Under the pieces are notes generated by a model. It was not told the origin of the DNA. It ran no database searches and was given only the letters and a program-made list of their open reading frames with translations. Source: Candidatus Heimdallarchaeota archaeon (GTDB taxonomy: Archaea > Asgardarchaeota > Heimdallarchaeia > Heimdallarchaeales > Heimdallarchaeaceae). From it: a stretch of 46,807 bases of DNA. Numbering within the stretch: the first letter of the stretch is position 1; each line of letters opens with the position of its first letter. The translations under genes were made by a program, and so were the position numbers. Shown piece after piece: positions 15,051 to 40,635 of this stretch. The stretch spans positions 1-46,807 of the forward strand of contig JABCTC010000027.1 of assembly GCA_018238545.1 (NCBI GenBank). The letters are read 5' to 3'.

Positions 15051-18000
15051 ATGATAAGTGATGAAATGAGAGATTTATTTGATCACATTAACGAAGGTGT
15101 TACTTTAGTCAAGGAAGGTAAAATAGTTTATGTTAACAAAAAATTAACAGAAATTCTAGGCTATACTTTGGAAGAATTAATGGAAGAGTCCATTTTTCTG
15201 TTTGCTTCTACAGAGAACCATGAGAACATAGAAGATAAGGTCGAAGAAAAGAAAATAAGCAGCACTCCTTTGAAACTCTTGGAATTCTGGGTCATTGGGA
15301 AAGATGGGAAAAGAAAGTATATTAGAAATCAATATCACGATATAGAAAAAGAGGGAGAAAGAGTAGGCCAGATAATATATACTCAAGATATTTCTGAAGA
15401 GAAACAAAAAGAGACATTAATTCTCGCTTCAGAATTTAAAAAATCGAGATTTCTAGACTTTCTTTCTGAACACGTTATATTCCACGATGTTAATCTAAAT
15501 ATATTATGGGCTAACAAAGCTGCAACAGACTCTTTAAACATCAGCACGAATAATATTGTAGGTAAAAATTGCTACAGATTATGGCACGGTAGAGAAACAC
15601 CGTGTGATATATGTCCTGTATTAGTTGCAAAAGAAACTGGAAAAGAAAGCAGTTCTGAGGTTACAACTCCCGATGGTAGAGTATGGCATATTAGAGGTTT
15701 TCCAGTATATGGTGATGAAGGTACATTAATTGGGATGGCAGAATTAACTAGAGAAATTACAGAGCGTAAAGAAGCTGAAACCGAATTAATGGAAAACGAA
15801 GAGAGATACAGACATATTTTCCATGGTGTTGTAGATGCAATTTTTATTCATGAGATTGATGATGATGGAAATTTCGGAAAGTTCATAGAAGTGAATGATT
15901 TAGCATGTCAGTGGACAGGTTACTCGCGGGAGGAATTGATGAATAAAACTTCAAGAGATATAAGTCGTAGAGATCCTTTAGAGATTGAGAAAAACATTTC
16001 TAAAGAGCTAATTTCTTCTGGAGAAGCATCATTTGAGATGTCTTTAATTTCGAAGAGTAATAAATTAATACCTGTAGAGATACACTCCACATTATTCAAT
16101 TTAAAGGGAGAAAAAGCTGTTTTATCTATTGCCAGAGACATTACTGAACGCAGGAAAGCAGAAGAGAAGTTAAAAGATAATGAAGAAAAATTCCGTCAGA
16201 TTTTTCACAAAACAAACGACGCCATATTTCTAGCAAAATTTGAAGAAGATGAGAACACAAGCCAATTCATAGAAGTAAACGATGTAGCTTGTGAGTGGCT
16301 TGGTTATACAAGAGATGAATTGCTTAACCTGAAATCAATTGACATAACAGCTAAAGTCTCTACATCTCAACATCTCGGAATTCTTCGTAATATTCTAAGA
16401 AAAGAGACTCATAGTTATGATTCTATTGTTCTAACCAAGGATGGAACAGAACGGCTAGCTGAAATGGAATCACATATTTTTTACTTAAAGGATGAAAAGT
16501 TAGTACTTACTTTTGCCAGAGACATAACGGATAGGAAAGAAGCTGAAGAAGAACTACAAGAAAGTGAAGAAAAATTCAGGCAAATATTCCATAATGCACA
16601 AGATGCAATGTTCATAAACAAAATTGAAAATGGTACCAAACTTGGTGCTTTTATTGAAATTAATAATACTGCTTGTCAGTGGATAGGCTATTCTAGAGGG
16701 GAATTATTAGGTTTAACTAGTTACGAAGAAGAAGATAAAACAATAGAAAATTTCTTTTCTTTCCATCTAGATGAGGAAATATTAAGTTCTGGGAAACAGA
16801 CATTTGAAACAGTTATTATTAGTAGAACTAAAAAACAGATTCCAGTTGAGGTAAGATCTCACTTGTTTGACCTTGCTGACGAACAAGTTATCTTATCCAT
16901 CGCAAGTGATATCACAGATAGGAAGAAGGCAGAAGAGATAATTAAAGAGAGCGAGGAAAAATACAGAACGCTAATTGAAACATCATCCAATGCAATCATT
17001 CTTCTTAATCTCGATGGAAAACTTCAGTATGTCAATAAACTATCTGCTACTATGTTTGGTTACAAAACCACAGAAGATATGCTGGGTTTAACACCCATAG
17101 ATTTCGTTTCCCGTAAGGATTATGAGATAGCATCAAATTCACTAAACGAAACAATAAAAATAGGTAGTGTTAGAAACGTAGTGTTTTATGCAATTAAAAA
17201 GGATGGAGCAAGTTTTCCAGTAGAATTTAGTGCTACATTGTTACTCGACAAGAATGATAAACCCAGATCAATTATGGGCATTATTGAAGACATTACAGAC
17301 AGAAAGAAAGCTGTAGATGCACTTAAAGAAAATGAAGAGAAATTCAGACAAACTTTTGACCGATCAAACGATGGTATTATTCTTCATACACTTAAGGGGA
17401 ATATCATTGATGTTAATTATAGGCTTAGAGAACTTGTGGGATATTCAAAATCAGAAATACTACTTCTAACTATTCATCAATTACATCCTGTAACTGAACA
17501 AGAAGATTCCAAAAAAGCATTTGAAATTATACAAAAAGAAGGCTATGTCAAATTTGAGATTAGTTTCAAGAGAAAAGATGGCTCAATATTTCCTGCAGAG
17601 GTTTCATCCAGTCTATTCGAAATTAGAGGAGAGAAAATTGTTCAAGGGGTCATCCGAGACATAACAGAGAGAAAGAATTCTGAAAGAGAGCTTAAGGAAA
17701 GCGAAGAGAAATTTAGACAGATATTCCATAACGCTAACGATTGTATCTTTCTTACTCCGGTTAATAGAAAACTTGGAACTACTACAGAATTTATAGAAAT
17801 CAATGAAATAGCTTGCAAATTATTAAATTATACAAAAGAAGAACTCCTCACTATGAAATCTGTTGATATTACTGCACCAGAAGAAAGAGAAACTAACGCA
17901 GAAATCATTAGAGAAATTATTGCTCAAGGTTCAGGTACTTTTGAGACCAGTTTGATTACTAAAGACGGTATCAGAATACCCACAGAGTTGAGTTCACATC

Positions 18001-18710
18001 TTTTCTTCTTTATGGATGAAGAAGTGATTTTGACTATTGGAAGAGATATTTCAGAGCGTAAAAAAGCTGAACAAGATATCCAAGAAAGTGAAGAAAGGTA
18101 TAGGAAACTTGTAGAAACTTCCCCTGATGGAATTATTCTTACTGATATTGGCAACAACATTTTAGTTGCTAATCTGCAAATTGCGGAGATGTACGGTATA
18201 TCTAACCCCGATGAATTGATTAGTATCAACTCATTAGATATGATTAAAGAAGAAGATAGAGAAAGAGCAGCTGCAAATTTCAAGAAAACCTTGAAAGATG
18301 GAAAATCTGCAACAATAGAACTAGAATTTTTGAAAAAAAATGGGGACAGTTATCCAGGAGAACTAAGAGCTACAACTATATCAGATAAAGAAAACATACC
18401 TTATGCAATTGTATGTATTATCTCTGACATAATAGAAAGAAAGGAAGCAGAAAAGATTCGAACCGAAGCTTTTACTCGAATAGAACAAAATATACAAGAT
18501 TTTGATGCACTGGTAGATAGGATAAGAAATCCATTAATGAGTATCATAGGTTTCGCTGAACTTGCAGATAGTTTTCACTCCACTGTGATCATTGAAGAAG
18601 CAGAAAAAATCGAGGTTATTACTAAGCAGATAGCTGAAAGTTGGCTAGAATCTGAAGAATTCAGGAAGATTCTTAGGAAACATCTTTTAAAGGAAGAGGA
18701 AAAGGAATAA
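15051..18710 (+). CDS. Nine-PAS/PAC sensor protein with degenerate C-terminal HisKA-like helix pair and no HATPase domain
   Basis: Repeated DITERKxAEEELxESEEKFRQIF linkers delimit 9 PAS domains. C-terminus is LVDRIRNPLMSIIGFAEL...SWLESEEFRKILRKH. Confidence 0.88.
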   Translation: MISDEMRDLFDHINEGVTLVKEGKIVYVNKKLTEILGYTLEELMEESIFLFASTENHENIEDKVEEKKISSTPLKLLEFWVIGKDGKRKYIRNQYHDIEKEGERVGQIIYTQDISEEKQKETLILASEFKKSRFLDFLSEHVIFHDVNLNILWANKAATDSLNISTNNIVGKNCYRLWHGRETPCDICPVLVAKETGKESSSEVTTPDGRVWHIRGFPVYGDEGTLIGMAELTREITERKEAETELMENEERYRHIFHGVVDAIFIHEIDDDGNFGKFIEVNDLACQWTGYSREELMNKTSRDISRRDPLEIEKNISKELISSGEASFEMSLISKSNKLIPVEIHSTLFNLKGEKAVLSIARDITERRKAEEKLKDNEEKFRQIFHKTNDAIFLAKFEEDENTSQFIEVNDVACEWLGYTRDELLNLKSIDITAKVSTSQHLGILRNILRKETHSYDSIVLTKDGTERLAEMESHIFYLKDEKLVLTFARDITDRKEAEEELQESEEKFRQIFHNAQDAMFINKIENGTKLGAFIEINNTACQWIGYSRGELLGLTSYEEEDKTIENFFSFHLDEEILSSGKQTFETVIISRTKKQIPVEVRSHLFDLADEQVILSIASDITDRKKAEEIIKESEEKYRTLIETSSNAIILLNLDGKLQYVNKLSATMFGYKTTEDMLGLTPIDFVSRKDYEIASNSLNETIKIGSVRNVVFYAIKKDGASFPVEFSATLLLDKNDKPRSIMGIIEDITDRKKAVDALKENEEKFRQTFDRSNDGIILHTLKGNIIDVNYRLRELVGYSKSEILLLTIHQLHPVTEQEDSKKAFEIIQKEGYVKFEISFKRKDGSIFPAEVSSSLFEIRGEKIVQGVIRDITERKNSERELKESEEKFRQIFHNANDCIFLTPVNRKLGTTTEFIEINEIACKLLNYTKEELLTMKSVDITAPEERETNAEIIREIIAQGSGTFETSLITKDGIRIPTELSSHLFFFMDEEVILTIGRDISERKKAEQDIQESEERYRKLVETSPDGIILTDIGNNILVANLQIAEMYGISNPDELISINSLDMIKEEDRERAAANFKKTLKDGKSATIELEFLKKNGDSYPGELRATTISDKENIPYAIVCIISDIIERKEAEKIRTEAFTRIEQNIQDFDALVDRIRNPLMSIIGFAELADSFHSTVIIEEAEKIEVITKQIAESWLESEEFRKILRKHLLKEEEKE

Positions 18711-24941: not shown

Positions 24942-25316
24942 CTACATATCTTCCACACTTTTTTTCATTGCAATAAAAGCTTTGTAAAGACATTCAGAGC
25001 AATGTTTCGCTTCGGGATCCATAAATAGGATTACTTCTCTAGTGTTCATGTAAATCTTGCGAGGTATAGACATATCTCCAATCTTTATTCTTTTATTCTT
25101 TGTAGGGCAGAAAACAAAATCTTCTTTATCAGCTATCACAGCATTCAAGCAGTAGGAAGGGTTTTGAAACTCACTTATGTCAATTTTTTGCAGGTCTGCT
25201 TGATGCAGAAAATTAATTAGTATAACATCATCAAATTCGTCATCTAAAATACAGTAAGTTTCGTTGTCAACTTCTTTATGTAATGGACATGGTTGCATAA
25301 TCCACAATACTGGCAC
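24942..25316 (-). CDS. Small Cys/His-rich hypothetical protein, putative metal binder
   Basis: CPLH, YC, YC, FCP and HCSEC (6 Cys in 124 aa). TATA-like TTTTTATG ~30 nt upstream. Confidence 0.65.
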   Translation of the reverse strand: MPVLWIMQPCPLHKEVDNETYCILDDEFDDVILINFLHQADLQKIDISEFQNPSYCLNAVIADKEDFVFCPTKNKRIKIGDMSIPRKIYMNTREVILFMDPEAKHCSECLYKAFIAMKKSVEDM

Positions 25317-25642: not shown

Positions 25643-28600
25643 CTATTTTCTAATGGGTGGTCTGCTTCTAAATTCATAATAGATTTTAGTAATTTCTTTG
25701 ACTAGATCTTCATTGAAAGAAGCGATTAAAACAGGTTCACCAGAGGCCGTAGTATGTCCTAAGAATCCTTCCTCAATACCATCTCTTGTACCCATATAAG
25801 CAGTTAATTGAGGATCATCTTTTACTATAACATTACCCATCCCTAATAATTTATCTAGGATCGCATTATCTGCTTCAGTATGTACTGTAGTATTGGTTAC
25901 TATTTCTAGTTTCCTTCCAAAAGTATCTAAGAATTCAGCATCTATCCAGCTCAAATTAGGACAGATTATAGTTGCGGAGGATTTTGTATTTCTTAGAGTT
26001 GACATCATCGTGGAAAAGGTTTGTTCTTTACCATGTACTAGCCAGATATCTTCTATGGGGGCAGGTTCAACACCTTTGCCCAAATTGAGAACACTTCTAA
26101 GTAATTTCATTGATTCACCTGTAGCTTCTAAAACAATATCAATCTTTGATGGGATTGATTTCAGAATGCCTGTAATATTCGAATCAACTTTATCTATTTC
26201 CTTCAGTGAACTTGAGATGAATTCTTCTTTGAATGTTTGCAGCTTCAATGAATATTCATCTTTGGTAGAAGTAGAGGCTTTTGAATTTTCTAGAGCTTTA
26301 TTCATCTTCTCAGCTATAACTCCATAGAATGTTTCAAAGATATCATCAACAGCTTGTTCAACTCCTTTAAGATCTTTATCTACAGTCTCATGAACTGAAG
26401 ATGAGGTGTCAAGTAACGAATCTTTTGTACTTTGGATATTTGTCACTAAAGCTGAAGAATTGGAATCTGAACTTGACACTAGTGAGTTGATTTGGTGACT
26501 AACATTCAGCTGGAAGTCATTACCCTCCTTCTCAAATGCGTCTTCAACAGATACTATACTTTTATCATATTCGCTTGAAATATTTGCATAAACTTTTTCC
26601 AAATCTTTCTTAGTTTCTTCATACAACTCGTCTAGAATTGCTTGTGCTTGAGAATGGTAATCATTTATTGCTGAGGTAAGATTTGATGCGAATATAGCGT
26701 TATCACTATCTAACCACTCAGGGTAAGATTCAGTAAGTTTGTTGAGTTCTGCTTTTGCTTCATTAATTGCATTATCTAACGAAGATGCTTTTTTAGGTGA
26801 AACACTTAAATCTGCTAACAAACCTTCTGAACTCTCCATAAACGCTTGTACTTCTTGATTAACAGAATCACGAATTTGCTCACCTACTACCTCTGTTTGT
26901 TGACTGTAACTTGCTGAGGCTTCATCTAGAGTAACAGACACATCTGTATCCAGAGCTTTCTTTGCTCCCTCAAATTCTGACTGGAGCATCTTCATGTTGC
27001 CATCCATTGAAGTAGCTACACTTTTTACAAGTGTTGAGTGGTCATCAATGTTAGTTTTAATTGTCTCTTGTAGTTTTTGCATTACTTCATCATTATTTAC
27101 TCGCATAGTGCTGAAAATTTCTTCTTTAGAGGAAAGTAATCCTTGTAAACCTTCTTCAATGTGTAGTTGCATTTTTGTTTTTTCTACTTCACCCTCTTCA
27201 TCACCTATAACTGACTCTCCTGCTTTTATCACTTCATCAAGATATTTGCCAGTTTTATTGATAATTGCTTGGAAAGAGTTGGTTGCATTATCTGTAATCA
27301 GCTTATTTGTTTTTTCTAATTCCTTGAAGGTAGTATTTAGCTTCTTACTTATTTCACTCTCTGAATCACTCATTGTTTGAAGAATTGTAGTTTTAGATGT
27401 GTTAATTTTCTCTTTCTCACCATCTAGAAGCTTCACTACATTTGAAACAAATGAATTAGAGTTCTTTGTCAATGTATCAATTTGTACTTGATATAGATCC
27501 TGAACCTTTTCTGGAGTGGTTATTTCATTAATAGTATTTGTTAAGCTACTTGTTGCTTCCTCAACCTTACTCTTCAAAGAGTTTATTGATTCATGCTCAT
27601 TACCAACAATGCTGCCAAGAGCCTGAGTGTTGGTATCTTGCAATTCAGTAAAACTTGTTTCATATGTGGTGAAAGTAGTATCGATTCTTTCCTTCATGCT
27701 ATCGTATGATTCTCTAAGCTGATTTGTAATCTCATCTTTAGCTTTCTCTATTTTTTGACTAATGTCCTCTACTTCTGAATCCGACAATTGTGAAAGGGCG
27801 TCTATACGGCTATTCATCTTGTTAAAAATATCAGTTGAAAGACTCTCCATTGAGCTAGTGAATGTTTTAATAACTTCAGCAATTTTACTTTCCGTATTAT
27901 ACTTCAAGTTATTAATATCAGCAATCATGGTTCCGATTAAATGAGCCATTCTGGGACCAGCTTCTTTTCCAAAAACTTTCTGTAATTGCTTTTGATCCAG
28001 GTCTTGGAAGGCTTCATTAATTTCAGTTAGTTTAGCAACAGAGGCTTTAAACTGATCATCGAGTTCTTGAACACTTTCAAGGCTTGATTGATAATTAATT
28101 TGAACTAAATTAGGTACCTCATCTCTAACATCTCTACCATTCTTAGCAAATTCTTCAGAAAATGATATAATTCTTGTCTTAATTTCCTCATTTTTAGTAT
28201 CCATGAAACTGTTCACAGTAGTTGTATTAGTATCAATATTCTCTTTGATATCTGACAAAGCAATGGTTTTAAGTTCGTTAAGATGGGTAAGATAGTTTTC
28301 TTTGAACTCAGTGTGAGTGGAAGTAAACTTCTTCTTGCTAGCGTTCATTTTTTTGGAGTAGCTGTCAATAGTTAAAGAGATGCTAGTAACATATTCTGAT
28401 GAAGCCAGCTCAAATGATGATACTGTATTGGATAAGAAGTTCAACATCGTTTCTTGGTTTGCCAAAACATCTTTCTCAAGCTTTTTGAGATAACCTTGCT
28501 CCTTTTTCTTTACAGAAGTTAAAGCAATATCGGTCTCTGTATGTATCTCTGCTGCTACATCAGTCAGTTTTGTGTTGCTTTGTTGAATGGATTCCTTAAT

Positions 28601-30067
28601 AGAAATCGATAAGAATGTATTCAACTCTTGGATTTTCTTGTTCATGCTTTCTTTTTGACTTGACGATAAATTAACAAAGTCAGAGAGATTTTTCTGCAAA
28701 TCTTCATTTATGGATAATTTCAAAGTATCAAAATCATCCATAATTTCTCCAAAGAAGCTTTTAATCTGGTCACTTACATTCTCAATGGATTTTGATAGAG
28801 TGTCCTCAAATAGGTTTAAACCGTCATTTATCCCACCTTGAAGAAGTGTTAATAGATTGTCACTATTTTTCTCGAAATCATTCAAATAATCATTTAAGTT
28901 CCCAACAAGCTTATTTTTCATCTCAGCAGTTTTAGTTTCAGTTTGAGATATTAAGTTTCCAAGCTTTTCGACTGATAGAGTCTTTATTTGGCTCAAAAGA
29001 TCTTGGAATTGTGTTTCATTTTGCTGCAAAACATTAATTGCTGAATCCTTTGCTTTTTCAATAGCATTTTTGATTCTGTTAGAGGTTAAATCTTCTAACT
29101 TTTTTAACTCTTCATTTAATGAAGATAGAATATCTTTTACTTTTGTTTGATATTCGTCTAAATTAGTGTGGTAATCACTAACAATTTTGTTTATTGTTTC
29201 TATTGATTTTGTTGTTGATTCTTTGGTTATTAATTTAGAATCACTGATGAGTTTCTTGTTAACATCATTTGTATTATCAACAATTAGAGATTTTTTCTCA
29301 CCTGCTTTGGAGTTAAACTGTTCAAGAAGTGTGCTTATGTTAGTTTTTATTCCTTCAACTTTTTCTAATATTCCATCTAGTTGCCCTTTTGCACGAGCAT
29401 TATGTTCGGTTTCTAGATTGGTATACGTCTCTTGTATCTTTGTTTTAAAACTCTCATGGTGTTCCCCAACTCTATGGATTGTTGTATCAAAAGTTGATGA
29501 GAGATTCTCTTGGATTCTTTGTATAGCTTTTTTCAGGTTGTCACTGTGTGTAGTGGTAATTATTCCTGTGTCTGTTTTAATCTTTGAAATTGCTTCTTGT
29601 ACATCGTTCTTTCCTGTTGTTACTACTTCAGAAACAGAAGCAAGAAATTGCTTTGAAATATCACTTAGCTCTTGACTATGACTGTCAGTCGATTCTGTCA
29701 GATGATTATGAAATGTAGATAATTGACCTCGAAAGGTTTTCATAGTATTATTCCAATCATTCTTCACATCATCACTTAAAGCTTTAAGTTCATTTTCAAG
29801 CCTCATGGATACATCTTCAGTTAGCTTAATTTGTGGAGGCAAGGGGATAAAATATGAGGTTCCTTCATTATTTTTTGCTATTATTTCTTTTATATAGCCT
29901 TTAGTAACTAAACTACCCAAAGCTGCAGAAATAACATCAACAGTTTGTTTATAGTAGGATTGGATTTGTCCAATGGTTCTAGTTCCAAATTGAACGACTG
30001 TTGAATAAACCTGAATTTCATCTTGCGATAAACCTATTTTTTCTAATGTTGATTCCATTTTCATCAC
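25643..30067 (-). CDS. Giant TrmB-family protein: N-terminal TrmB wHTH, ~1250-aa hendecad helical rod, C-terminal TrmB effector (PLD-like fold) domain
   Basis: LEKIGLSQDEIQVY..GTRTIGQI..ALGSLVTKGYI..YFIPLPP matches the TrmB HTH pattern. EDIWLVHGKEQ..TKSSATIICP..LEIVT..TRDGIEEGFLG..NEDLVKEI matches the TrmB C-domain pattern. The middle is almost all helix-forming residues. Confidence 0.8.
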   Translation of the reverse strand: MMKMESTLEKIGLSQDEIQVYSTVVQFGTRTIGQIQSYYKQTVDVISAALGSLVTKGYIKEIIAKNNEGTSYFIPLPPQIKLTEDVSMRLENELKALSDDVKNDWNNTMKTFRGQLSTFHNHLTESTDSHSQELSDISKQFLASVSEVVTTGKNDVQEAISKIKTDTGIITTTHSDNLKKAIQRIQENLSSTFDTTIHRVGEHHESFKTKIQETYTNLETEHNARAKGQLDGILEKVEGIKTNISTLLEQFNSKAGEKKSLIVDNTNDVNKKLISDSKLITKESTTKSIETINKIVSDYHTNLDEYQTKVKDILSSLNEELKKLEDLTSNRIKNAIEKAKDSAINVLQQNETQFQDLLSQIKTLSVEKLGNLISQTETKTAEMKNKLVGNLNDYLNDFEKNSDNLLTLLQGGINDGLNLFEDTLSKSIENVSDQIKSFFGEIMDDFDTLKLSINEDLQKNLSDFVNLSSSQKESMNKKIQELNTFLSISIKESIQQSNTKLTDVAAEIHTETDIALTSVKKKEQGYLKKLEKDVLANQETMLNFLSNTVSSFELASSEYVTSISLTIDSYSKKMNASKKKFTSTHTEFKENYLTHLNELKTIALSDIKENIDTNTTTVNSFMDTKNEEIKTRIISFSEEFAKNGRDVRDEVPNLVQINYQSSLESVQELDDQFKASVAKLTEINEAFQDLDQKQLQKVFGKEAGPRMAHLIGTMIADINNLKYNTESKIAEVIKTFTSSMESLSTDIFNKMNSRIDALSQLSDSEVEDISQKIEKAKDEITNQLRESYDSMKERIDTTFTTYETSFTELQDTNTQALGSIVGNEHESINSLKSKVEEATSSLTNTINEITTPEKVQDLYQVQIDTLTKNSNSFVSNVVKLLDGEKEKINTSKTTILQTMSDSESEISKKLNTTFKELEKTNKLITDNATNSFQAIINKTGKYLDEVIKAGESVIGDEEGEVEKTKMQLHIEEGLQGLLSSKEEIFSTMRVNNDEVMQKLQETIKTNIDDHSTLVKSVATSMDGNMKMLQSEFEGAKKALDTDVSVTLDEASASYSQQTEVVGEQIRDSVNQEVQAFMESSEGLLADLSVSPKKASSLDNAINEAKAELNKLTESYPEWLDSDNAIFASNLTSAINDYHSQAQAILDELYEETKKDLEKVYANISSEYDKSIVSVEDAFEKEGNDFQLNVSHQINSLVSSSDSNSSALVTNIQSTKDSLLDTSSSVHETVDKDLKGVEQAVDDIFETFYGVIAEKMNKALENSKASTSTKDEYSLKLQTFKEEFISSSLKEIDKVDSNITGILKSIPSKIDIVLEATGESMKLLRSVLNLGKGVEPAPIEDIWLVHGKEQTFSTMMSTLRNTKSSATIICPNLSWIDAEFLDTFGRKLEIVTNTTVHTEADNAILDKLLGMGNVIVKDDPQLTAYMGTRDGIEEGFLGHTTASGEPVLIASFNEDLVKEITKIYYEFRSRPPIRK

Positions 30068-30070
30068 ACT

Positions 30071-31519
30071 TTAAAGTTCGTTTTTTATAGATTCTATACT
30101 TCTTTCTAATCTTTCAATTCTATTAATCAGATCTCTTTTTCTTTTTTCGGCATCTTCTGCGCTCTTAACATGTTCTTTAGCTTCTACGTCTAGATCTGTC
30201 ATTATAGATTGCTGAGTTTCAGCAATTTGACTTTTAATATTGGAAGATTGGGATGCTATATTTGCTCGATTTTCTTTTTCAACAACCTCAAGTTGAGTTG
30301 TGATTTGAGAACTTGTTTGACTGATTGAAGCCTTTAATCTCTCGACTTCTTCTTCCAATAATGCTATTTTTTGGAGAAATTCTGATTCAGTTTTTTCTTT
30401 AGTTTTATCAGATTCCTCTATGACTATTGTTTGAATCTCGGATAACTTTTGTTTAATATCATTCTTTTCAGTAGAAATAATAGTCTTGGTTTCTTCTTTC
30501 ATTTCATCAGATTGTTTGGAAAATGATACTAACTCGTCATCTGCGTTCTTGTTGAAATTTTCTTGAAAGTCTTTAAGTTCGTTTCCATGAGATTCTATTT
30601 GCTGTGTTACTAATTCCTCATAAAGATTGATTATGGATGCTTTGGATTCATTGAAGTTAGAAAGGGCAACTTCATTAACATTGAACATGCCTTGCTCATA
30701 TTCTGCTAGAACCTCTTGAATCTTTGCAATTTCATCAATAAGATATTTATCCATTGTTCCTGAAATTCCAGATAGCTCTGTCTGAATCCTCTTAACAGCG
30801 TTATCTACTAGTTGAGCTAGTTCACTTTTTATCCTATTGAAACTCTCAAAAATTGATTCCATGTTCTCTGTAAGTTTATCACCGTATTCAGAGCGAAGAT
30901 GCTCTATAGACTCTTTCATAATATTTTCAGTTATATTAATATTAGATTCTAGCTGTTTCTTCATTTCCTCAGCATTTTTCTCAAACGTTGTTATACTATT
31001 TTGCCTAATATCTGAAACATCTTCCTTAACAGTTGTAATTGCCTTTCTAAAGGAGTTTACTTGACTATTTGATAATCTGTTAATATCTTGTTCATGAGAA
31101 CTTAAAATTGATGAAATTTTCTCTTCAAAGCTAGCTGAATATTTATCATACTCAGTTTTCCCTTTTTCCAAAGTAGAAAGAACGGTATCTTGTAATGAAA
31201 CTAGCATTTTCTTGGTCTCATCTAATTTACCACATACTGTTCTTGATTGGGTTTCAGTCCATTCATTTAGAAAGGTTCGATCTTTTTCCGAGCCAGCTCT
31301 AACACTATTCTCGAGACTAATCTTATTATTATCAATTAAGGTTCGAATATTTTCATTCAAAGATATGAACTTGTTTTGTATCAATGTTGCCATTGTTTGA
31401 TAATATTTTTGCAATTCTAGCTGGTTTTCCAATGCTTCTTTGAAATTGGTTGCTTGACCTTCTAAATTTTCTATTTCTCTTCTAATTTTATCTAAATCTT
31501 TAGATACTTTTTCAGACAT
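30071..31519 (-). CDS. Proline-free all-helical coiled-coil protein (~482 aa)
   Basis: No Pro, E/K/S/Q/N-rich, 4-4-3 hydrophobic spacing in the core. GGTGA SD overlaps the upstream stop codon and points to ATG 31519. Confidence 0.8.
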   Translation of the reverse strand: MSEKVSKDLDKIRREIENLEGQATNFKEALENQLELQKYYQTMATLIQNKFISLNENIRTLIDNNKISLENSVRAGSEKDRTFLNEWTETQSRTVCGKLDETKKMLVSLQDTVLSTLEKGKTEYDKYSASFEEKISSILSSHEQDINRLSNSQVNSFRKAITTVKEDVSDIRQNSITTFEKNAEEMKKQLESNINITENIMKESIEHLRSEYGDKLTENMESIFESFNRIKSELAQLVDNAVKRIQTELSGISGTMDKYLIDEIAKIQEVLAEYEQGMFNVNEVALSNFNESKASIINLYEELVTQQIESHGNELKDFQENFNKNADDELVSFSKQSDEMKEETKTIISTEKNDIKQKLSEIQTIVIEESDKTKEKTESEFLQKIALLEEEVERLKASISQTSSQITTQLEVVEKENRANIASQSSNIKSQIAETQQSIMTDLDVEAKEHVKSAEDAEKRKRDLINRIERLERSIESIKNEL

Positions 31520-31528
31520 GTTTTTCAC

Positions 31529-33292
31529 CTAAAATTCTAATTCTTTTTCAATATTCTCCAAAGAAATTTCCTTTATTTCTTCCTTTTTTGGTTCTAATGT
31601 TGGTTCCACAATTAGTTCTTCTTTCTCAAACATCATTGTTTTGAAATAATTGCGATGGATACTTTCAGGATTGAATAAATCAGCTGCTTTCTTACGTATC
31701 CTTTCAAAACTCTCATTATCACCCATACTTCTATTGCAATCTAAGCTCCTCTTGAAATATCCTCTTACAGCATATTCATTCTTCTCAATTGGAAGACTCA
31801 TTGCCATTTTTTCAAATTGGTCAGAAGCTCTTGAATAAGACCTTTTTGCTTTCAATTCTTCTTCAACTGAGTCATAATAATTCGCAGACTTCACATAGAG
31901 TTTTGCAGCAAAATAGTAGTTTTTTTCTTCAAATTCTCTTGCAATTGATTCACAAACTCCACCAGCTTGCTCCAGCTCATTTATTTGCTCAAATTGATGA
32001 GCATTAATGATTGCAAAATCGTATGCTCTTTGATACATTTCCTTTTCAATACATATCTTAGTAATTTTATTCAACTTCGCTGCAATAGCAAAATCTGCTA
32101 ATCTATCCCTTATCTTAAGAGTAAGGTTTTCAATGATTTCTATAACATTATCAGATGGAGCAATGTGATTTTCAAGATCGCTTAAAATCGAATCTAATCG
32201 TACCATTAATGTTGGTAAAGGACCAAATAAGGTTAACCTAAATTTCATAGCAGTCAATAATGAATCCTGAACTAATCTAGCGTGTTGTGATCCTAACCAT
32301 AAAATTCCTTTTTCTTCTAAACTCTTAAGTGTGCCCAGTGACACATAAGCAGTTAGCTGCTCGATGAGAAAAACATTTTCATTATAAGAGGCCATTTCTA
32401 TAAAAGCTGCTTCTTCATCATCTGTTAACTCAAAATAAGCTCGTATATTCCTCTCAACGAAATCTTCAATTTGTAAATCAGAAGATATGAAAGCTACACC
32501 TAAATTCAAATCGAAAAAAGATCGGTGGCTATTAGTAATTAATTCTAATATACCCTTATTTATCAACATTGGATCCTTTCGTCTAAGATATATTTCTGCT
32601 TCTGAAGCAGTTAAAGGCTCTATTTTTACAATGTTTGCACCATTAGTCAAGTTCTTCTCGTAATCAAAATCATAGAGATATTTTTCATTGAATGTAGCAA
32701 CAATGATGATATTGTATTTTCGTTCATTAACACCCTTTACAATTCTCGAGAATATCGGATAGAACTCCTGTAAATCCAATGTCTTAAACAGTTGTAGATT
32801 ATCAAAGAAGAAGTAAAGAAACGTGTTTGTTTCCTGTAATTTTACATTTACTTTGTCAAGACTATCGAAGAATAAGTCAACATAGTGATCTGTGTAGGAT
32901 TTTTCGGAAGGAATTTTCAGTGTTTGATTTAATTGAGGGAGATCATCACCTAGTTTCTTTTTCCCTACTTTTTCCAATAATGAACGCCAATCAGGTGATA
33001 ATTCATCTATCTTATTCTTCCATATTTTGAAAAAACTTAGGAGTTCATCCTCTTCAGGAATCAGATTTACAACATGAACTAGGTCACTTCTTCCAGAAAT
33101 TGATGTGGATAGTTTAGATAATAATGAACTTTTACCTGTTCCTTCATCTCCTATAATCAAAAATGAATGAATATTATCTTTCTTTTGTTTGATTTTACCA
33201 ATCTGCTCTGTGAAATTTTTAATTATTTCTCTTGAACCATAAAAGTCATCAGGCTGGCAAGGTTGTAAAAATTCGCTTTTTTCACTTGTCAT
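31529..33292 (-). CDS. STAND-like (archaeal ATPase/AAA_16-type) P-loop NTPase with wHTH and C-terminal TPR/SNAP-like repeats
   Basis: FYGSREII, Walker A GDEGTGKSS, Walker B LYFFFDNLQ, KIEPLTASEA, wHTH LKSLEEKGIL, TPR-like AAKLYVKSANYY..KAKRSYSRAS. Confidence 0.8.
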   Translation of the reverse strand: MTSEKSEFLQPCQPDDFYGSREIIKNFTEQIGKIKQKKDNIHSFLIIGDEGTGKSSLLSKLSTSISGRSDLVHVVNLIPEEDELLSFFKIWKNKIDELSPDWRSLLEKVGKKKLGDDLPQLNQTLKIPSEKSYTDHYVDLFFDSLDKVNVKLQETNTFLYFFFDNLQLFKTLDLQEFYPIFSRIVKGVNERKYNIIIVATFNEKYLYDFDYEKNLTNGANIVKIEPLTASEAEIYLRRKDPMLINKGILELITNSHRSFFDLNLGVAFISSDLQIEDFVERNIRAYFELTDDEEAAFIEMASYNENVFLIEQLTAYVSLGTLKSLEEKGILWLGSQHARLVQDSLLTAMKFRLTLFGPLPTLMVRLDSILSDLENHIAPSDNVIEIIENLTLKIRDRLADFAIAAKLNKITKICIEKEMYQRAYDFAIINAHQFEQINELEQAGGVCESIAREFEEKNYYFAAKLYVKSANYYDSVEEELKAKRSYSRASDQFEKMAMSLPIEKNEYAVRGYFKRSLDCNRSMGDNESFERIRKKAADLFNPESIHRNYFKTMMFEKEELIVEPTLEPKKEEIKEISLENIEKELEF

Positions 33293-34952: not shown

Positions 34953-36137
34953 CTAGATTATTAGAGGCTCTAGTTCTCTCGGATATGGAGTAATTAAATC
35001 TGAACCATCTTCTGTTATGATAATTGTATCTGAATGACGAAATCCTCCAAACTTATACTCATAAATTCCAGGTTCACATGTAAAAACCATACCAGGTTGA
35101 ATTATCTCATCAACACCAATATCGAGGAATGGAGCTTCATGTCCTTCCATCCCAATTGCGTGTCCAGTGTGATGTTGAGTTAAATGTTTCATACCTGCTT
35201 CTTTGAACACATTTACAGATGCTTTGTCCACTTCACTGCAAGGGATTCCAGGTTTAAATGCTTCTAAAGCTGCATCTTGGGCTTTTTTCATGACATCAAA
35301 ATATCTTCTCTGTTTTTCAGAAGGAGCCCCAATAAACATAGTTCTCTCCAGCTCTGAAAGATATCCAGAAACATTAGCTGCTGCCCCTGTAACTAAGACA
35401 TCACCTTTTTTGAAAATTGCTTTTTCAATTACAGAATGTGGTATTGCAGACCATTCTCCTATCTGACCTCTGTATCCTGCATGAGCAGGGAGTAATCCTC
35501 GGGGGATGAAACCTTTCAAATCGTCCATCATCTGCTTTGATGCTTCAACACAAGCTTGAAGTGATACTTCTATCTCATTTTTACCCTCTTCAGTATATTT
35601 TTGTAGAAGTTGATGAGCTAAATCACCATATTTTGCAGAAACCCTTATCAGTCTAAGTTCTTCTTCATCCTTGATTTTTCTCATTTCTGGTATTAATGAG
35701 GAATGGATGTTATACGAAGTTTCTTTTGCTATCAAATCAGACAACAGAGGACCACTATACCCCCAATAAGCAGAGAATGTTGTTGATTCCATTCCAACTT
35801 TGTTGTCTAAAATCTTATGCTCTTTTAGGCTTTCAATAAACAGCTTTGCTGGGTGGGTCATATCAGGATATTCAAAATATAGTTCTCTTCCTACCCAAGG
35901 AATTTTCTCTATTAGATGTTCTTGTTCTAATCTGGGAACGAAAAACCATGGTTCATCATCATGAGGTAGAACAAATGCAATAGGTCGTTCAGTTGGGATA
36001 AAGTGGTATCCTGTTAAGTAATAAATTGATAATGGACTAAAGAAAATCATAGAACCTAGATCGGTGCTTTCTTGAAACTCATGTATCTTTTCAATCCTTC
36101 TAAGATGATTCTTTTTTGTTATAGCATAATTATTCAT
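34953..36137 (-). CDS. M24 pita-bread-fold hydrolase (Xaa-Pro peptidase/creatinase-like)
   Basis: N-domain IYYLTGY..ERP, RKIKDEEE, PHS, GYLSELERT, HHTGHAIGMEGHE, EPGIY, GGFRHSDT. Confidence 0.85.
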   Translation of the reverse strand: MNNYAITKKNHLRRIEKIHEFQESTDLGSMIFFSPLSIYYLTGYHFIPTERPIAFVLPHDDEPWFFVPRLEQEHLIEKIPWVGRELYFEYPDMTHPAKLFIESLKEHKILDNKVGMESTTFSAYWGYSGPLLSDLIAKETSYNIHSSLIPEMRKIKDEEELRLIRVSAKYGDLAHQLLQKYTEEGKNEIEVSLQACVEASKQMMDDLKGFIPRGLLPAHAGYRGQIGEWSAIPHSVIEKAIFKKGDVLVTGAAANVSGYLSELERTMFIGAPSEKQRRYFDVMKKAQDAALEAFKPGIPCSEVDKASVNVFKEAGMKHLTQHHTGHAIGMEGHEAPFLDIGVDEIIQPGMVFTCEPGIYEYKFGGFRHSDTIIITEDGSDLITPYPRELEPLII

Positions 36138-36156
36138 GTGAATTCTTTCCTTTTTG

Positions 36157-36606
36157 TTATGCAAATCCTATTACTGTACTTGTTGGCAGTAATTTTCTAA
36201 GAGTAATAAGATCTGGTTTATATAAAAATGTTAAATGTTTCGGGAGGAGATTATCAATGAATTCAACCCATGTTCCTTTGAATTTATCTAACACTTTTAA
36301 AACTAAGAACTGATCAATCAACTCACCAGAGATAGCATAGGTACCCAGTCCAAGATCTCTTCGCCTAATTATCAGAAAGGGAAGAAGAACTTCATTTTCT
36401 TTCTTGGTGGGACAAATAGAGAGAAGCAAATCTATTTCTTTTTTGTTAATATGTAGTTGGCTATTATCCCTACTAACGTACACATTGTAACCTTTGTTAG
36501 CTAAACTTAAAGGAACTCTTTTCTTAGGCAGATGTAAGTTAATTGAATCTATTTCATGTTTTAGGAAATTGCTTAATTTGTCGTCAAATCCCAAATATTT
36601 CACCAA
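36157..36606 (-). CDS. DUF61-family archaeal protein
   Basis: EIDSINLHLPKKRVPL..RDNSQLHI..E....L..LLPFLI..LRKLLPTSTVI pattern recognised as DUF61. Confidence 0.75.
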   Translation of the reverse strand: MVKYLGFDDKLSNFLKHEIDSINLHLPKKRVPLSLANKGYNVYVSRDNSQLHINKKEIDLLLSICPTKKENEVLLPFLIIRRRDLGLGTYAISGELIDQFLVLKVLDKFKGTWVEFIDNLLPKHLTFLYKPDLITLRKLLPTSTVIGFA

Positions 36607-37401
36607 TCAATTTCCTGAGTACGTTTTGGGGAAAAAGATTTTATCAATATTATAGTAAATCAAATGTGTTCCAATCAAAAATGGAATGAATAGTGTTATA
36701 ATATTGAATATGATGAAGATGAAAACTGCTCCGACAAGATAGACAAAATATAGATCTACGATGTTGAACCCAAAGATGAATACTGTGGCGATTACTAGGT
36801 TTACTAGGATGTCAAGGAAAATAGCATAAATCAGCCAAATGACTATTTCCTTTTTCTTTAGTGTGAATTTCTTAATTGATTTTCCTAGGATATAACCAAT
36901 AATAATTGCAAAAGGAACACCAAGTATTACTGAAGATCCTTTTATGAAAAGGATGGAGGATAGGTTAGCAGGAACATTCAATGATAGAGCTATATTTGGA
37001 TCTGTTGGATCATATGATGCTAGCGCTACAAGAAGATTCAATAGATAATGAAGTATTGACACTGCTATGAAAATCAGTGTCATATAGAGAAATTTCATGC
37101 CAGAGGAGTACTCTTTCAATTGTGTTGGTTCTGTTTTCTCTTTTTTCTTTGAATCCTTTTTCTTATCTGTAACTTCTGCATCTGGTATTTCCGGCATTGC
37201 AGGCATTGCTGGGTAATCAGAAGTGCTTTCCTTTTCAACTACACGAGGTGGTGCTCCAGGTACTGACACACTTGGATCATCTGCATGTTCTTTAAACACT
37301 TCAGCATTTTCATCTATATCTGTATCACAGAAGACACATTTAGTAGTGCCAGCGATATTAAGATTACCACAATTTGTGCAACGGACAAAATCTTCACTCA
37401 T
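36607..37401 (-). CDS. Zinc-ribbon membrane protein
   Basis: CTNCG..CVFC, Pro-rich then Lys-rich linker, four TM segments. Confidence 0.75.
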   Translation of the reverse strand: MSEDFVRCTNCGNLNIAGTTKCVFCDTDIDENAEVFKEHADDPSVSVPGAPPRVVEKESTSDYPAMPAMPEIPDAEVTDKKKDSKKKEKTEPTQLKEYSSGMKFLYMTLIFIAVSILHYLLNLLVALASYDPTDPNIALSLNVPANLSSILFIKGSSVILGVPFAIIIGYILGKSIKKFTLKKKEIVIWLIYAIFLDILVNLVIATVFIFGFNIVDLYFVYLVGAVFIFIIFNIITLFIPFLIGTHLIYYNIDKIFFPKTYSGN

Positions 37402-37445
37402 TAATATATAATTAAACTAATGAATTAAAAAAGTATCTAAAATTC

Positions 37446-38618
37446 TCAATGATTTACTTTATACTTCTTAGAATCATCTATCAGTTTTTGGAATAGTTTT
37501 TCTTGTTTCTTTGGAAGAGGCATTTTATCTTTCAATTGTGTTAAGAGTTCTTTTTCATTCTCGGATAATTTACCAGGGATAGCATAATGAACAATAATCA
37601 GAAAGTCCCCATAGTTAATGCCGTACTGCGTTTTTCTTTGAATGCCTTTTCGACTAAGACGCAAGACGTTGCCCTCTTTTGTTTTCTTTGGTATTTTCAC
37701 TTTTTCCGGACCATAAGGAGTAGGGACTATCATATCGCCACCTAAAACAGCAATTGGATAGGGGATAGATAGTTCAACTATTATGTTATCATTTTGTCTT
37801 TTATAGAAGAGATGAGAGTCTACTATCAATCGGAAATAAAGATCCCCTCTAGGTCCACCCAAACGACCTTTTTCGCCTTTTCCTCGTACTCTTAATCGAA
37901 AACCAGTGTCTACACCAGGAGGAATATCCAATTTAATCCTCTCATCTTCCCTTGAATCTCCGGTACCTCTGCATGTTTTGCAAGGTTTTGATATGACCTC
38001 TCCGCCACCATTGCATCGTCTGCATGTTTGTTGAGTACTAAATGTGCCAAATGCTGTTCTTTGACTAACCATCACTATACCTGCACCTTTACACTCAGGA
38101 CAAGTTTCAGGAGATGCACCCTTTTCTGCTCCAATTCCACTGCAATCTGGACAAGGTTTCTTAATTGGCACATCAATAATCTTCTTAGTACCATAAATTG
38201 CATCCTCAAAAGAAATTCCATAATTCATCAGCAAGTCCGAACCCTTTTGCGGACCAGATGGGCGCCTAGCTCTTCTTCTCCCGAAAAGACTACTGAATAT
38301 ATCATCTCCTGAAAAATCGTTTTGAAAGATAGAATTGAAAATATCCATAACCGAAGAAAAATCACCGGAATTAACATTTGAAAAACGAGATTCTACACCA
38401 CTAAAACCAAATCTATCGTAAGCAGACCTTTTTTCAGAATCAGCTAATATCTCATAAGCTTCAGAGGCTTCTTTAAATTTATTAGCTGCTTCTGGATCAT
38501 CTGGATTACGGTCAGGATGATACTGCATTGCTTTCTTTCTGAAAGACTTTTTAATGTCGGCTTCTGTTGCATCTTTCGAGACATCTAGAACCTCATAATA
38601 ATCTCGCTTTTCTGACAT
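37446..38618 (-). CDS. dnaJ: Molecular chaperone DnaJ
   Basis: DYYEVL, HPD motif, G/F region, four CxxCxGxG repeats, C-terminal domain. Confidence 0.97.
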   Translation of the reverse strand: MSEKRDYYEVLDVSKDATEADIKKSFRKKAMQYHPDRNPDDPEAANKFKEASEAYEILADSEKRSAYDRFGFSGVESRFSNVNSGDFSSVMDIFNSIFQNDFSGDDIFSSLFGRRRARRPSGPQKGSDLLMNYGISFEDAIYGTKKIIDVPIKKPCPDCSGIGAEKGASPETCPECKGAGIVMVSQRTAFGTFSTQQTCRRCNGGGEVISKPCKTCRGTGDSREDERIKLDIPPGVDTGFRLRVRGKGEKGRLGGPRGDLYFRLIVDSHLFYKRQNDNIIVELSIPYPIAVLGGDMIVPTPYGPEKVKIPKKTKEGNVLRLSRKGIQRKTQYGINYGDFLIIVHYAIPGKLSENEKELLTQLKDKMPLPKKQEKLFQKLIDDSKKYKVNH

Positions 38619-38707
38619 TGTGATTCATCTATTATTTTATGGATATAAAAACAAGAAAGAAAGAAGTAATAAAAATATTATCGGTTAAAGAGAAGTTAGA
38701 ATTTTAT

Positions 38708-40603
38708 CTAATCTTCATCTTCAACTGGTTCATAATCAACATCTATTACTTGTTCTTCATCAATGTCAGGCTGTTGAGGAGCGCCTGGTGTAGGTCCATC
38801 TCCTGCTGGAGTAAATGGATCCTGACCAGGTTGAGGGCCTCCAGGTGCTTGACCTGTTTCAGCATATATTCTTTGAGCTACTTTGGAAATCTCTTGCATA
38901 AGGTCTTCAGTTTTATTCTTCAACTTTTCAATGTCATCCTTTTCCATTTCTTTCTTAAGAACCTCAACTTTCTCGTCCATTGCCTTCTTTTCGTCTTCAG
39001 TTACTTTGTCTTCTAAATCTTTGAGAGTTTTCTCAGCTGTATAGATAGCTTGTTCTGCTGTATTTCTTGTTTCAACAGCAGTTTTTCTCTTCTCATCTTC
39101 TTCTTTATACTTCTCTGCATCTACTCTCATTTTTTCTATCTCGTCTTCAGAAAGACTTGATGATTGAATTACGATACTTTGTTCCTTTCCAGTTCCTAGA
39201 TCTTTTGCTGAAACTTGGAGAATACCATTAGCATCCATATCGAAAGCTACTTCGATTTGTGGAATACCTCTTGGAGCTGGAGGAATACCTACTAACTGGA
39301 ATCTTCCAAGTGTTATATTGTCAGGAGCCATTTTTCTTTCTCCTTGTAGAACATGTATTTCTACGGAAGTTTGCATATCAGCGGCAGTCGAGAAAACGTT
39401 CTTTTTGGTTACAGGAATAGTAGTATTTCTTTCTATAAGAGGGGTCATAATCGAACCTAGTGTTTCTAATCCCAAAGTAAGGGGTGTAACATCTAGAAGA
39501 AGAATATCTTTAACTTCACCAGCAAGAACAGCAGCTTGGACAGCTGCTCCCAGTGCAACAACTTCTTCAGGAGCTACGCCTTTGTACGGTTCTTTGTTGA
39601 AAATCTCTTTAGTCATATCTCTGATCATGGGCATTCGTGTTGCACCACCAACCAAAATAATCTTGTCTAAATCATTAGCCTTCTTACCTGAATCTTTCAT
39701 TGCCTGCTTGGTAGGTCCTACGCATTTTTTAACAAGGTCTCTTGTAATATCCTCAAATTTTGCTCTTGAAAGCTCTAAATCAAGATGTTTAGGTCCAGAA
39801 GCATCAGCTGTAACATAAGGTAAACTTATTCTTGTTTTCAATTTTGATGTTAGTTCGATTTTAGCTTCTTCTGCTGCATCTTTTAATCTCTGCATAACTT
39901 TTGCATCTTTTGTAAGATCAATTCCTTCTTTTTTCTTGAATTCATCTACAATCCAATCGATTATTCTTTGATCCCAGTCATCTCCACCTAGTAAGTTATT
40001 ACCACTAGTTGCAATTACTTTGAATAAACCATCATCAAGTTCTAATATTGAAACATCAAAGGTTCCTCCACCAAGATCAAACACTAACACTCTTTCTGTG
40101 CCCTCCTTTTCTAAACCATAAGCTAATGCACTAGCAGTTGGTTCGTTAACAATTCTCAAAACCTCTAATCTTGCAATTTCTCCTGCATTCTTTGTAGCGG
40201 TTCTTTGCGCGTCAGAAAAGTATGCTGGTACAGTAATAACAGCTTTGTTAATCTTCTCTCCTAAATATGCCTCTGCATCCTCGACCATTTTTGTTAAAAT
40301 CATTGCAGAAATCTCTTCGGGTCTGTATTCTTTTCCGTCTAGAGAAAATCTATAATCTGTACCCATCTTTCTCTTGATACTTCTAATTGTTCGGTCATGC
40401 ATTGCAATTGATTGCCTTTTTGCTTGAATCCCTACAGTTCTTGTACCATCTTCATTGATTGTAACAACACTAGGTGTTAATCGTCCACCTTCTAAGTTTG
40501 GTATGATTTCTGGTTTTCCAGCAACCATATGTGCAATACCAGAGTTGGTTGTACCTAGATCTATCCCAACAACTAACTCTTTCTTTGTTTTTTCTTTACT
40601 CAA
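38708..40603 (-). CDS. dnaK: Molecular chaperone DnaK (Hsp70)
   Basis: [47 protein letters not shown]. Short N-terminal indel form typical of archaea and Gram-positives. GGTGA points to TTG 40603. Confidence 0.97.
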
Positions 40604-40635
40604 ATCTATCACCGTTAAATAAGCATTATAGTAAC

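Follow-up and report, generated by a model that had tools for sequence, protein, structure and literature searches.

The closest described relatives of the protein reported here are the regulator TrmB and the chromatin protein TrmBL2 (structures 3qph and 2f5t for Pyrococcus furiosus TrmB; 5bpd, 5bqt and 5box for TrmBL2), in which a PF01978-family winged helix-turn-helix (wHTH) domain and a C-terminal domain with a phospholipase D (PLD) fold are joined by an amphipathic helix of about 30 amino acids (aa) in antiparallel register. The linker helices of P. furiosus TrmB form an antiparallel intermolecular coiled coil (Phe81/Ile91' and Phe84/Leu88'), and the dimer has been called domain-swapped (PMC4158304). 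We describe a gene in a stretch of 46,807 nucleotides from Candidatus Heimdallarchaeota archaeon (assembly GCA_018238545.1, contig JABCTC010000027.1; hereafter the window), the product of which has the same two domains at its ends but a linker of more than a thousand residues. The gene, located at 25643-30067 on the minus strand, is a genuine open reading frame (ORF) of 1474 aa from a Heimdallarchaeaceae-like Asgard archaeon, and its closest relatives are labelled Heimdallarchaeaceae or Heimdallarchaeota. Its true start may be the ATG at 30064 or 30058, since residue 4 is the first residue in most homologs. Our comparisons show that both ends are homologous to TrmB/TrmBL2 and that the DNA-reading and catalytic motifs have been lost; as judged from sequence, they also show descent from a TrmB/TrmBL2 regulator by growth of the antiparallel linker helix into a pair of arms that have hendecad periodicity and match in length.

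The protein consists of a TrmB-type wHTH (aa 4-78, 29834-30058), a first helical arm (aa 79-688, 28004-29833), a tip or turn (aa 689-705, 27953-28003), a second arm (aa 706-1334, 26066-27952) and a TrmB/TrmBL2-like PLD-fold C-domain (aa 1335-1474, 25646-26065), all on the minus strand, with about 1255 helical residues between the two end domains. A Pfam search matched the wHTH at aa 8-63 (E 3.9e-6; 27 bits with a cut-off of 25.6), along with nine apolipoprotein-like stretches. The landmarks named in the first-pass annotation, namely the end of the wHTH at Pro75, Pro77 and Pro78, Gly-Lys-Gly-Val-Glu-Pro at aa 1330, and Pro705 at nucleotide 27955, are all present. Pro705 is central, as stated there, but the homologous boundaries P78 and E1334 give a rod of 1256 aa with its midpoint at 706 rather than at about 704. 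The single other proline of arm 1 is located at 652 and not at about 657, and the four breaks listed for arm 2 were found at 851, 955, 1090 and 1115, while the invariant Pro1306 had been overlooked. The prolines in and around the rod occupy positions 75, 77, 78, 652, 705, 852, 1091, 1116, 1306, 1335 and 1337.

Strong evidence on how the rod is folded comes from the lengths of its arms. A search with the C-domain over 399 Asgard genomes returned members of widely varying length, of which 60 loci were taken for comparison. A hidden Markov model (HMM) of the centre region, applied without information about the midpoint, was placed in 32 proteins of 714-1812 aa, and the length of arm 2 followed that of arm 1 with a slope of 0.98 and r 0.998, as expected by the first-pass annotation if the hinge stays central among homologs of different length. 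Counted from the residue equivalent to Pro652, the excess of arm 2 over arm 1 was 105 +/- 8 aa throughout. In a Loki-type subfamily, the centre motif of which is different, the slope was 1.02 and r 0.996 (n = 27); both sets include kin and represent about ten separate length classes. Three proteins were excluded from the regression, two because the tip HMM fell on a wrong site at position 72 (L035 and L036) and one because its N-terminus is non-homologous (L042).

Furthermore, insertions and deletions occur in pairs across the centre. The close homologs fall into two length classes of about 1471 and 1257 aa, and the shorter class lacks two blocks flanking the centre, one in arm 1 (aa 444-549, 106 aa, 28421-28738, minus strand) and one in arm 2 (aa ~832-935, 104 aa, 27263-27574, minus strand; the precise edges depend on the aligner). 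Paired differences of 106/104, 35/37, 38/36, 22/22 and ~410/410 aa were observed. We consider the arm-length matching and the paired indels to be stronger evidence than the frequency of prolines near the midpoint, where 22 of 62 family proteins, a set that includes close kin, have a proline within 10 aa compared with 6.9 expected. The conserved features of the centre are Pro652 (about 53 residues before the midpoint), Gly700 and Lys701, whereas Pro705 is not conserved outside the close kin. A hydrophobic correlation between the arms was uninformative about the register, with a best r of about 0.2 and several peaks.

The sequence comparisons thus argue strongly that the two arms run in antiparallel register around the centre. 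The first-pass annotation named a parallel extended dimer, stacked short bundles or a randomly placed hinge as the outcomes that would speak against a fold-back, and these are contradicted here. Apolipoprotein matches in Pfam, which lie below the curated cut-off, and several breaks in arm 2 might suggest short apolipoprotein-like bundles with an incidental central proline. Such bundles, or a parallel extended dimer, would leave unexplained both the arms that match over an 1100-aa range and the repeated paired indels, and arm 1 holds a single hendecad phase over 610 aa. Because the arm lengths match and the indels are paired, we exclude a parallel rod or independent bundles for practical purposes and attach only a very small residual probability to them.

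Some members of the family have individual peculiarities of length. In L048:7045-10188 and L050:2606-5500, arm 1 extends by a 35-aa repeat with one proline per 35 residues, and the difference between the two proteins is the paired 35/37-aa indel. The most asymmetric member, L025:7280-10810 (1176 aa), has an arm 2 that is about 25 aa over the expected length. The excluded protein L042:3249-7019, in which a non-homologous N-terminus precedes the rod and C-domain, is a possible frameshift or assembly chimera. The short-rod Loki-type subfamily (P0076-P0175; also L055 and L061), in which the rods measure 216-391 aa, shows a central basic-hydrophobic-Gly motif of its own, and many of its members carry an N-terminal extension, or a disordered linker and a small helical domain past the C-domain.

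An AlphaFold model of aa 136-1334 (mean predicted local distance difference test, pLDDT, 64.5; predicted template modeling score, pTM, 0.31) places a helix up to residue 688, a short helix at 692-699, a loop at 700-702 and a new helix from 703 onward. The break is therefore located at aa 689-702, such that Pro705 opens arm 2 and the center of the turn is at about 695-698. The short helix is amphipathic and is followed by the conserved glycine and lysine (Phe699-Gly700-Lys701). The suggestion that Pro705 is the hinge is thus right about a break near the centre but not about the residue, and the tip register corresponds to i+j of about 1390-1400 instead of 1408. The full-length model of a 714-aa homolog, P0138 (pLDDT 74, pTM 0.33), consists of the wHTH, a helix at 77-317, a 5-residue turn, a helix at 323-575 and the alpha/beta domain. 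This model aligns with the coiled-coil hairpins of chemoreceptors and of SMC (structural maintenance of chromosomes) proteins, centred on residues 318-320; with chemoreceptor 2ch7, 309 residues were aligned (model 157-483, Z 11.0, root-mean-square deviation, rmsd, 10.3). The alignments show that the predicted structure is a hairpin, as the first-pass annotation had anticipated, and not that it is homologous to those proteins. Foldseek matches of the 1199-aa rod model to MukB and condensin had TM scores below 0.1 and rmsd values near 95, and were dismissed as generic.

We consider it likely that the chain folds back on itself at aa ~689-702 in the subfamily of the 1474-aa protein, a hairpin being favored on account of the conserved break in the helix at its centre. 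The wHTH would then meet the PLD-fold domain of its own chain, forming an "un-swapped" half of a TrmB dimer, and the reunited head would be carried by a rod of ~610-625 aa per arm, which by simple arithmetic (0.15 nm per residue) is about 90 nm long. The same symmetry could have arisen in another way. The first-pass annotation assumed that the two domains of an ordinary TrmB pack together within one chain, which is not borne out, since the linker coiled coil of P. furiosus TrmB is intermolecular and the dimer is described as domain-swapped (PMC4158304). A constant i+j inherited from TrmB is therefore compatible with an un-swapped hairpin and also with a stretched version of the ancestral dimer. 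In such a dimer a two-fold axis at aa ~695 would relate the chains, arm 1 of chain A pairing with arm 2 of chain B, and the product would be a dumbbell or V of ~185 nm that bears a head at either end and is jointed flexibly halfway along. This would be the simplest evolutionary path, given that ordinary TrmB dimerizes through its antiparallel intermolecular linker (PMC4158304), and it predicts identical paired indels.

Several observations weigh against a confident choice of the hairpin. The pTM values are low, the Z-scores of about 11-12 for the hairpin are unremarkable for long helices, and a single-chain model cannot exclude a dimer because any antiparallel signal must be satisfied within the chain; neither symmetry nor single-chain models can separate the two topologies. 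In addition, 12 of 56 non-redundant representatives of the family lack a glycine or proline near the midpoint, and these may be dumbbells. A homodimer prediction for a 486-aa Loki-type member scored 0.40, with the mark at 0.42, and was not used as evidence. Folding within the chain is favored by the centre of the rod in this subfamily, where the helix has a conserved break and a short helix caps it. SMC proteins presented the same ambiguity and proved to be intramolecular. We therefore regard the stretched dimer as rather improbable for the 1474-aa protein and its kin.

The resemblance of the proposed hairpin to SMC, Rad50 and MukB, which had been suggested in the first-pass annotation, is limited to the shape. 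In those proteins, and probably here too, a long antiparallel coiled coil turns back on itself at its middle, so that the N- and C-terminal domains meet. The 1474-aa protein has no ABC ATPase halves; its termini are a wHTH and a PLD fold with no match to an SMC model, its apex is a turn of ~14 aa without cysteine rather than a globular or zinc-hook hinge, and the periodicity of the rod family is hendecad and not heptad. The arm is also longer, ~90 nm in comparison with ~50 nm in SMC proteins (PMC11840125), and no kleisin was seen among the genes neighboring the TrmB rod. The hendecad period of 3.66-3.67, with hydrophobic residues at positions a, d, e and h, was found in arm 1 and family-wide, whereas arm 2 is more mixed and segmented. 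Other hendecad rods, such as the cytoplasmic tail of ZorA, the apolipoprotein repeats and the peripheral stalks of A/V-ATPases, share the 11-residue periodicity, but none of them has TrmB heads or a mirror-symmetric hairpin, and profile matches to them reflect composition and periodicity only. Matches to ZorA (30 bits, cut-off 190), SMC_prok_B and Apolipoprotein were dismissed as far below or under the cut-off.

To examine the heads, we set the 56 representatives beside 18 short Asgard TrmBs of the ordinary kind, in which the recognition helix starts with proline (100%) and has Arg/Lys (95%) and Tyr (94%), forming a Pro-x-x-Arg/Lys-x-Tyr motif, which the rod family lacks. The tyrosine corresponds to Tyr50, a DNA-binding residue listed for TrmB, TrmBL1 and TrmBL2 (PMC4158304), and is present in 17 of the 18 short TrmBs and in none of the 56 rod proteins; the short TrmBs were selected by Pfam score, which inflates their side of the contrast, while the 0/56 is unbiased. 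The motif sites of the 1474-aa protein are Thr42, Val45 and Ser47, the last being equivalent to Tyr50, and the helix starts mostly with an acidic residue, Glu, in the family. With the tyrosine absent and the helix start acidic, DNA reading in the canonical manner of TrmB is unlikely. What the family does conserve is a glycine in helix 2 (75%), together with the basic character of the wing and, in the C-domain, an R-D-x-E-E motif. Because of the wing, which remains basic in much of the family and counts against a purely structural role, non-specific DNA binding is possible. A tree of the two head domains placed the 56 rod proteins on one side of a branch and the 18 controls on the other (SH-like approximate likelihood ratio test 98). 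The idea of a reconstituted TrmB head thus holds for the TrmB-like character of both domains but not for the recognition helix.

The C-terminal ~140 aa alone had no match in Pfam or in a single-sequence search of the PDB. A family profile of the C-domain matched PDB entries 3qph, 2f5t and 5box, with coverage of only 92-207 in 3qph and 2-98 in 2f5t, and a homolog model matched TrmBL2 (E 8.7e-9) and the TrmB effector domain 2f5t (Z 14.0, rmsd 2.4, 123 residues aligned). As in TrmBL2, the sugar-binding beta subdomain, which holds Gly320 and Glu326, is missing, and the chain stops after the PLD-like subdomain. The HxK of the catalytic HxKxxxxD motif is present in 0 of 56 members; the aspartate is kept in 54. 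Further differences from TrmB and TrmBL2 are the length of the linker (216-1690 aa in the rod family), the presence of several paralogs per genome and the linkage of one subfamily to an ATPase of STAND type (signal transduction ATPase with numerous domains) and a second rod.

Homology to a chromatin protein raises the question of whether these proteins organize the chromosome. One hypothesis is that the hairpin binds DNA non-specifically through a TrmBL2-like head, coating or bridging it, and keeps it at ~90 nm from the membrane or from other DNA, perhaps as a substitute for SMC. The conserved Lys/Arg residues of the wing are consistent with this, as is the distribution of the SMC hinge (PF06470): the source genome, which is 92% complete, gave no match, nor did 42 of the 45 others in its order or any of the 22 from family f5. 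The hinge is present in most other Asgard families, and since the operon and SMC occur together in f13, f14 and f16, replacement of SMC was dismissed as a general rule. The rod is strongly acidic overall, the recognition helix is acidic as well, and Tyr50, which is kept by TrmBL2 (PMC4158304, Table 1), is missing in 56/56 proteins, which weakens the case for a chromosomal role. We therefore think a chromosome tether unlikely, if somewhat less so than the stretched dimer; rivals about topology and about function are not mutually exclusive.

The explanation we lean toward, by a small measure, is that the un-swapped TrmB-derived hairpin acts as a structural strut. Likewise, we slightly prefer a structural role to transcription control. 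The protein would be a strut of fixed length, neither a sequence-specific regulator nor a motor. Its heads may oligomerize or engage a partner, and would touch DNA by way of the wing weakly and non-specifically, if at all. The tip, with its conserved basic-hydrophobic-Gly motif, might dock on a distant surface, most plausibly a membrane. In 20 of the 56 representatives, where about 6 were expected, the 18 residues at the midpoint fall within the highest decile for basic charge, and the tip in the subfamily of the 1474-aa protein is typically a basic residue, Phe or Leu, Gly and Lys. Such a motif recalls short membrane-targeting helices, for example that of MinD. We put membrane docking forward as a tentative and rather doubtful suggestion, made from the composition of the tip.

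Three genes abut one another on the minus strand, and the one for the 1474-aa protein comes last. It is preceded, with a gap of 3 nucleotides, by a gene at 30071-31528 for a second rod of 485 aa, which is acidic, free of proline and coherent in hendecad phase over the whole chain, and is thus probably one unbroken helix. This in turn abuts, with a gap of 0 nucleotides, a gene at 31529-33292 for a STAND-type P-loop NTPase of 587 aa (AAA_16) with a C-terminus resembling tetratricopeptide repeats (TPR) or SNAP. In describing an SMC-like shape without an ABC ATPase, the first-pass annotation did not take account of this conserved STAND-type ATPase, the gene for which lies two genes upstream. The order of the three genes is kept in families f1-f4, f13, f14, f28 and f32, and in f16 and f17 the ATPase directly abuts the TrmB-rod gene. 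Among 24 partner ATPases, AAA_16 was matched in 22, nSTAND1 in 4 and SNAP in 5; Walker A and B are present, and the STAND GxP helical motif occurs in some members only. Non-canonical Walker A sequences were found in L017, L031, L032, L033, L038 and L039, which may be pseudo-ATPases. An NSF/SNAP-like machine was considered and set aside as weakly supported (Sec17 E 0.003; SNAP 5/24).

Judging from gene linkage only, the second rod might splint the hairpin by running along it as a third helix, and the ATPase-TPR protein might turn the assembly on or off. Two observations do not sit easily with such a strut complex. The length of the second rod does not follow that of the arms (485 aa with arms of ~520 and ~628 aa), and the ATPase is found in 83 of 399 Asgard genomes compared with 383 of 399 for the C-domain, so that most members have no ATPase.

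The linked ATPase also bears on a different hypothesis, in which the hairpin is a long-range transducer: the tip would bind a signaling partner, a register shift would run to the head, and the STAND-type NTPase would be the sensor or switch. Chemoreceptors have symmetric indels about a conserved tip, and their cytoplasmic hairpins (2ch7, 3g67) are, like the rods described here, long helical hairpins with length classes, over the whole of which the model of the 714-aa homolog could be aligned. Roadblock genes flanking the Helarchaeota locus would fit signaling as well. The rod family has no sequence homology to chemoreceptors and no membrane span or HAMP domain, and the 1474-aa protein had no MCPsignal match in Pfam at E<=0.1; the rods of the family are hendecad (period 3.67), carry TrmB heads and are up to five times longer. 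An output is not obvious, given that the DNA-reading motif and the catalytic HxK are both missing, the tip sequences vary between subfamilies, and the linked ATPase is missing for most members. A transducer thus appears quite improbable to us, more so than the tether or the stretched dimer.

The C-domain profile (E<=1e-12) matches 383 of the 399 Asgard genomes with 1-8 copies each, a few weak matches of which may be ordinary TrmBs because the best short TrmBs score near this threshold. The source genome has three matches, all of which are rod proteins (1474, 766 and 747 aa). All named long homologs are from Asgard archaea, and the leading Atlas clusters come from archaea, most commonly Asgard; in the databases the homologs are labelled "hypothetical" or "helix-turn-helix protein". 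We found no description of the protein in the open-access literature, and a 2026 review of the Asgard archaea mentions neither TrmB nor coiled coils. We regard it as a real kind of protein system, undescribed in that literature, with a well-supported anatomy and a predicted function. Being so conserved, with arm lengths held matched by paired indels, the family probably belongs to the core of Asgard cell architecture. More speculatively, and with considerable doubt, it could be a near-universal, multi-paralog family of cytoskeleton-like struts derived from a chromatin protein, each holding a head of TrmB origin at a fixed distance, ~15-125 nm across the family, from a tip that docks on a membrane. 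In the Heimdall, Freyr and Hel lineages, a STAND-type ATPase devoted to the struts and bearing a SNAP/TPR-like domain would assemble or release them. If so, the archaeal relatives of eukaryotes would possess an architectural system that has gone unrecognized. The family also provides antiparallel hendecad rulers in a natural series and, on the strut reading, an example of a regulator fold that became a structural protein. Short members are encoded in the lineage of the cultured Lokiarchaeia and are hence open to electron cryotomography, proteomics and recombinant work.

Other genes near these loci were also recorded. A 124-aa Cys-rich ORF without a Pfam match is located at 24942-25316 (minus strand) of the window, and lies 3' of the operon in several genomes of the same family but not in other families. 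A scan for sigma-70 promoters and terminators gave results at chance level, the sigma-70 model being unsuited to archaea. Elsewhere in the window, a 1219-aa protein with about nine PAS domains, in which no kinase or output domain was detected, is encoded at 15051-18710 (plus strand), and the segment at 34953-40612 (minus strand) contains DnaK and DnaJ, with no GrpE recognized alongside, followed by an unidentified 264-aa ORF, DUF61 and an M24 peptidase. At the Helarchaeota ATPase-rod pair (L150:3316-12349), three Roadblock/LC7 genes are located upstream and a V4R-Roadblock gene downstream. Finally, the gene downstream of the 747-aa paralog (L154:10104-13145) encodes a Dna2-like nuclease-helicase with a C-terminal RING finger.

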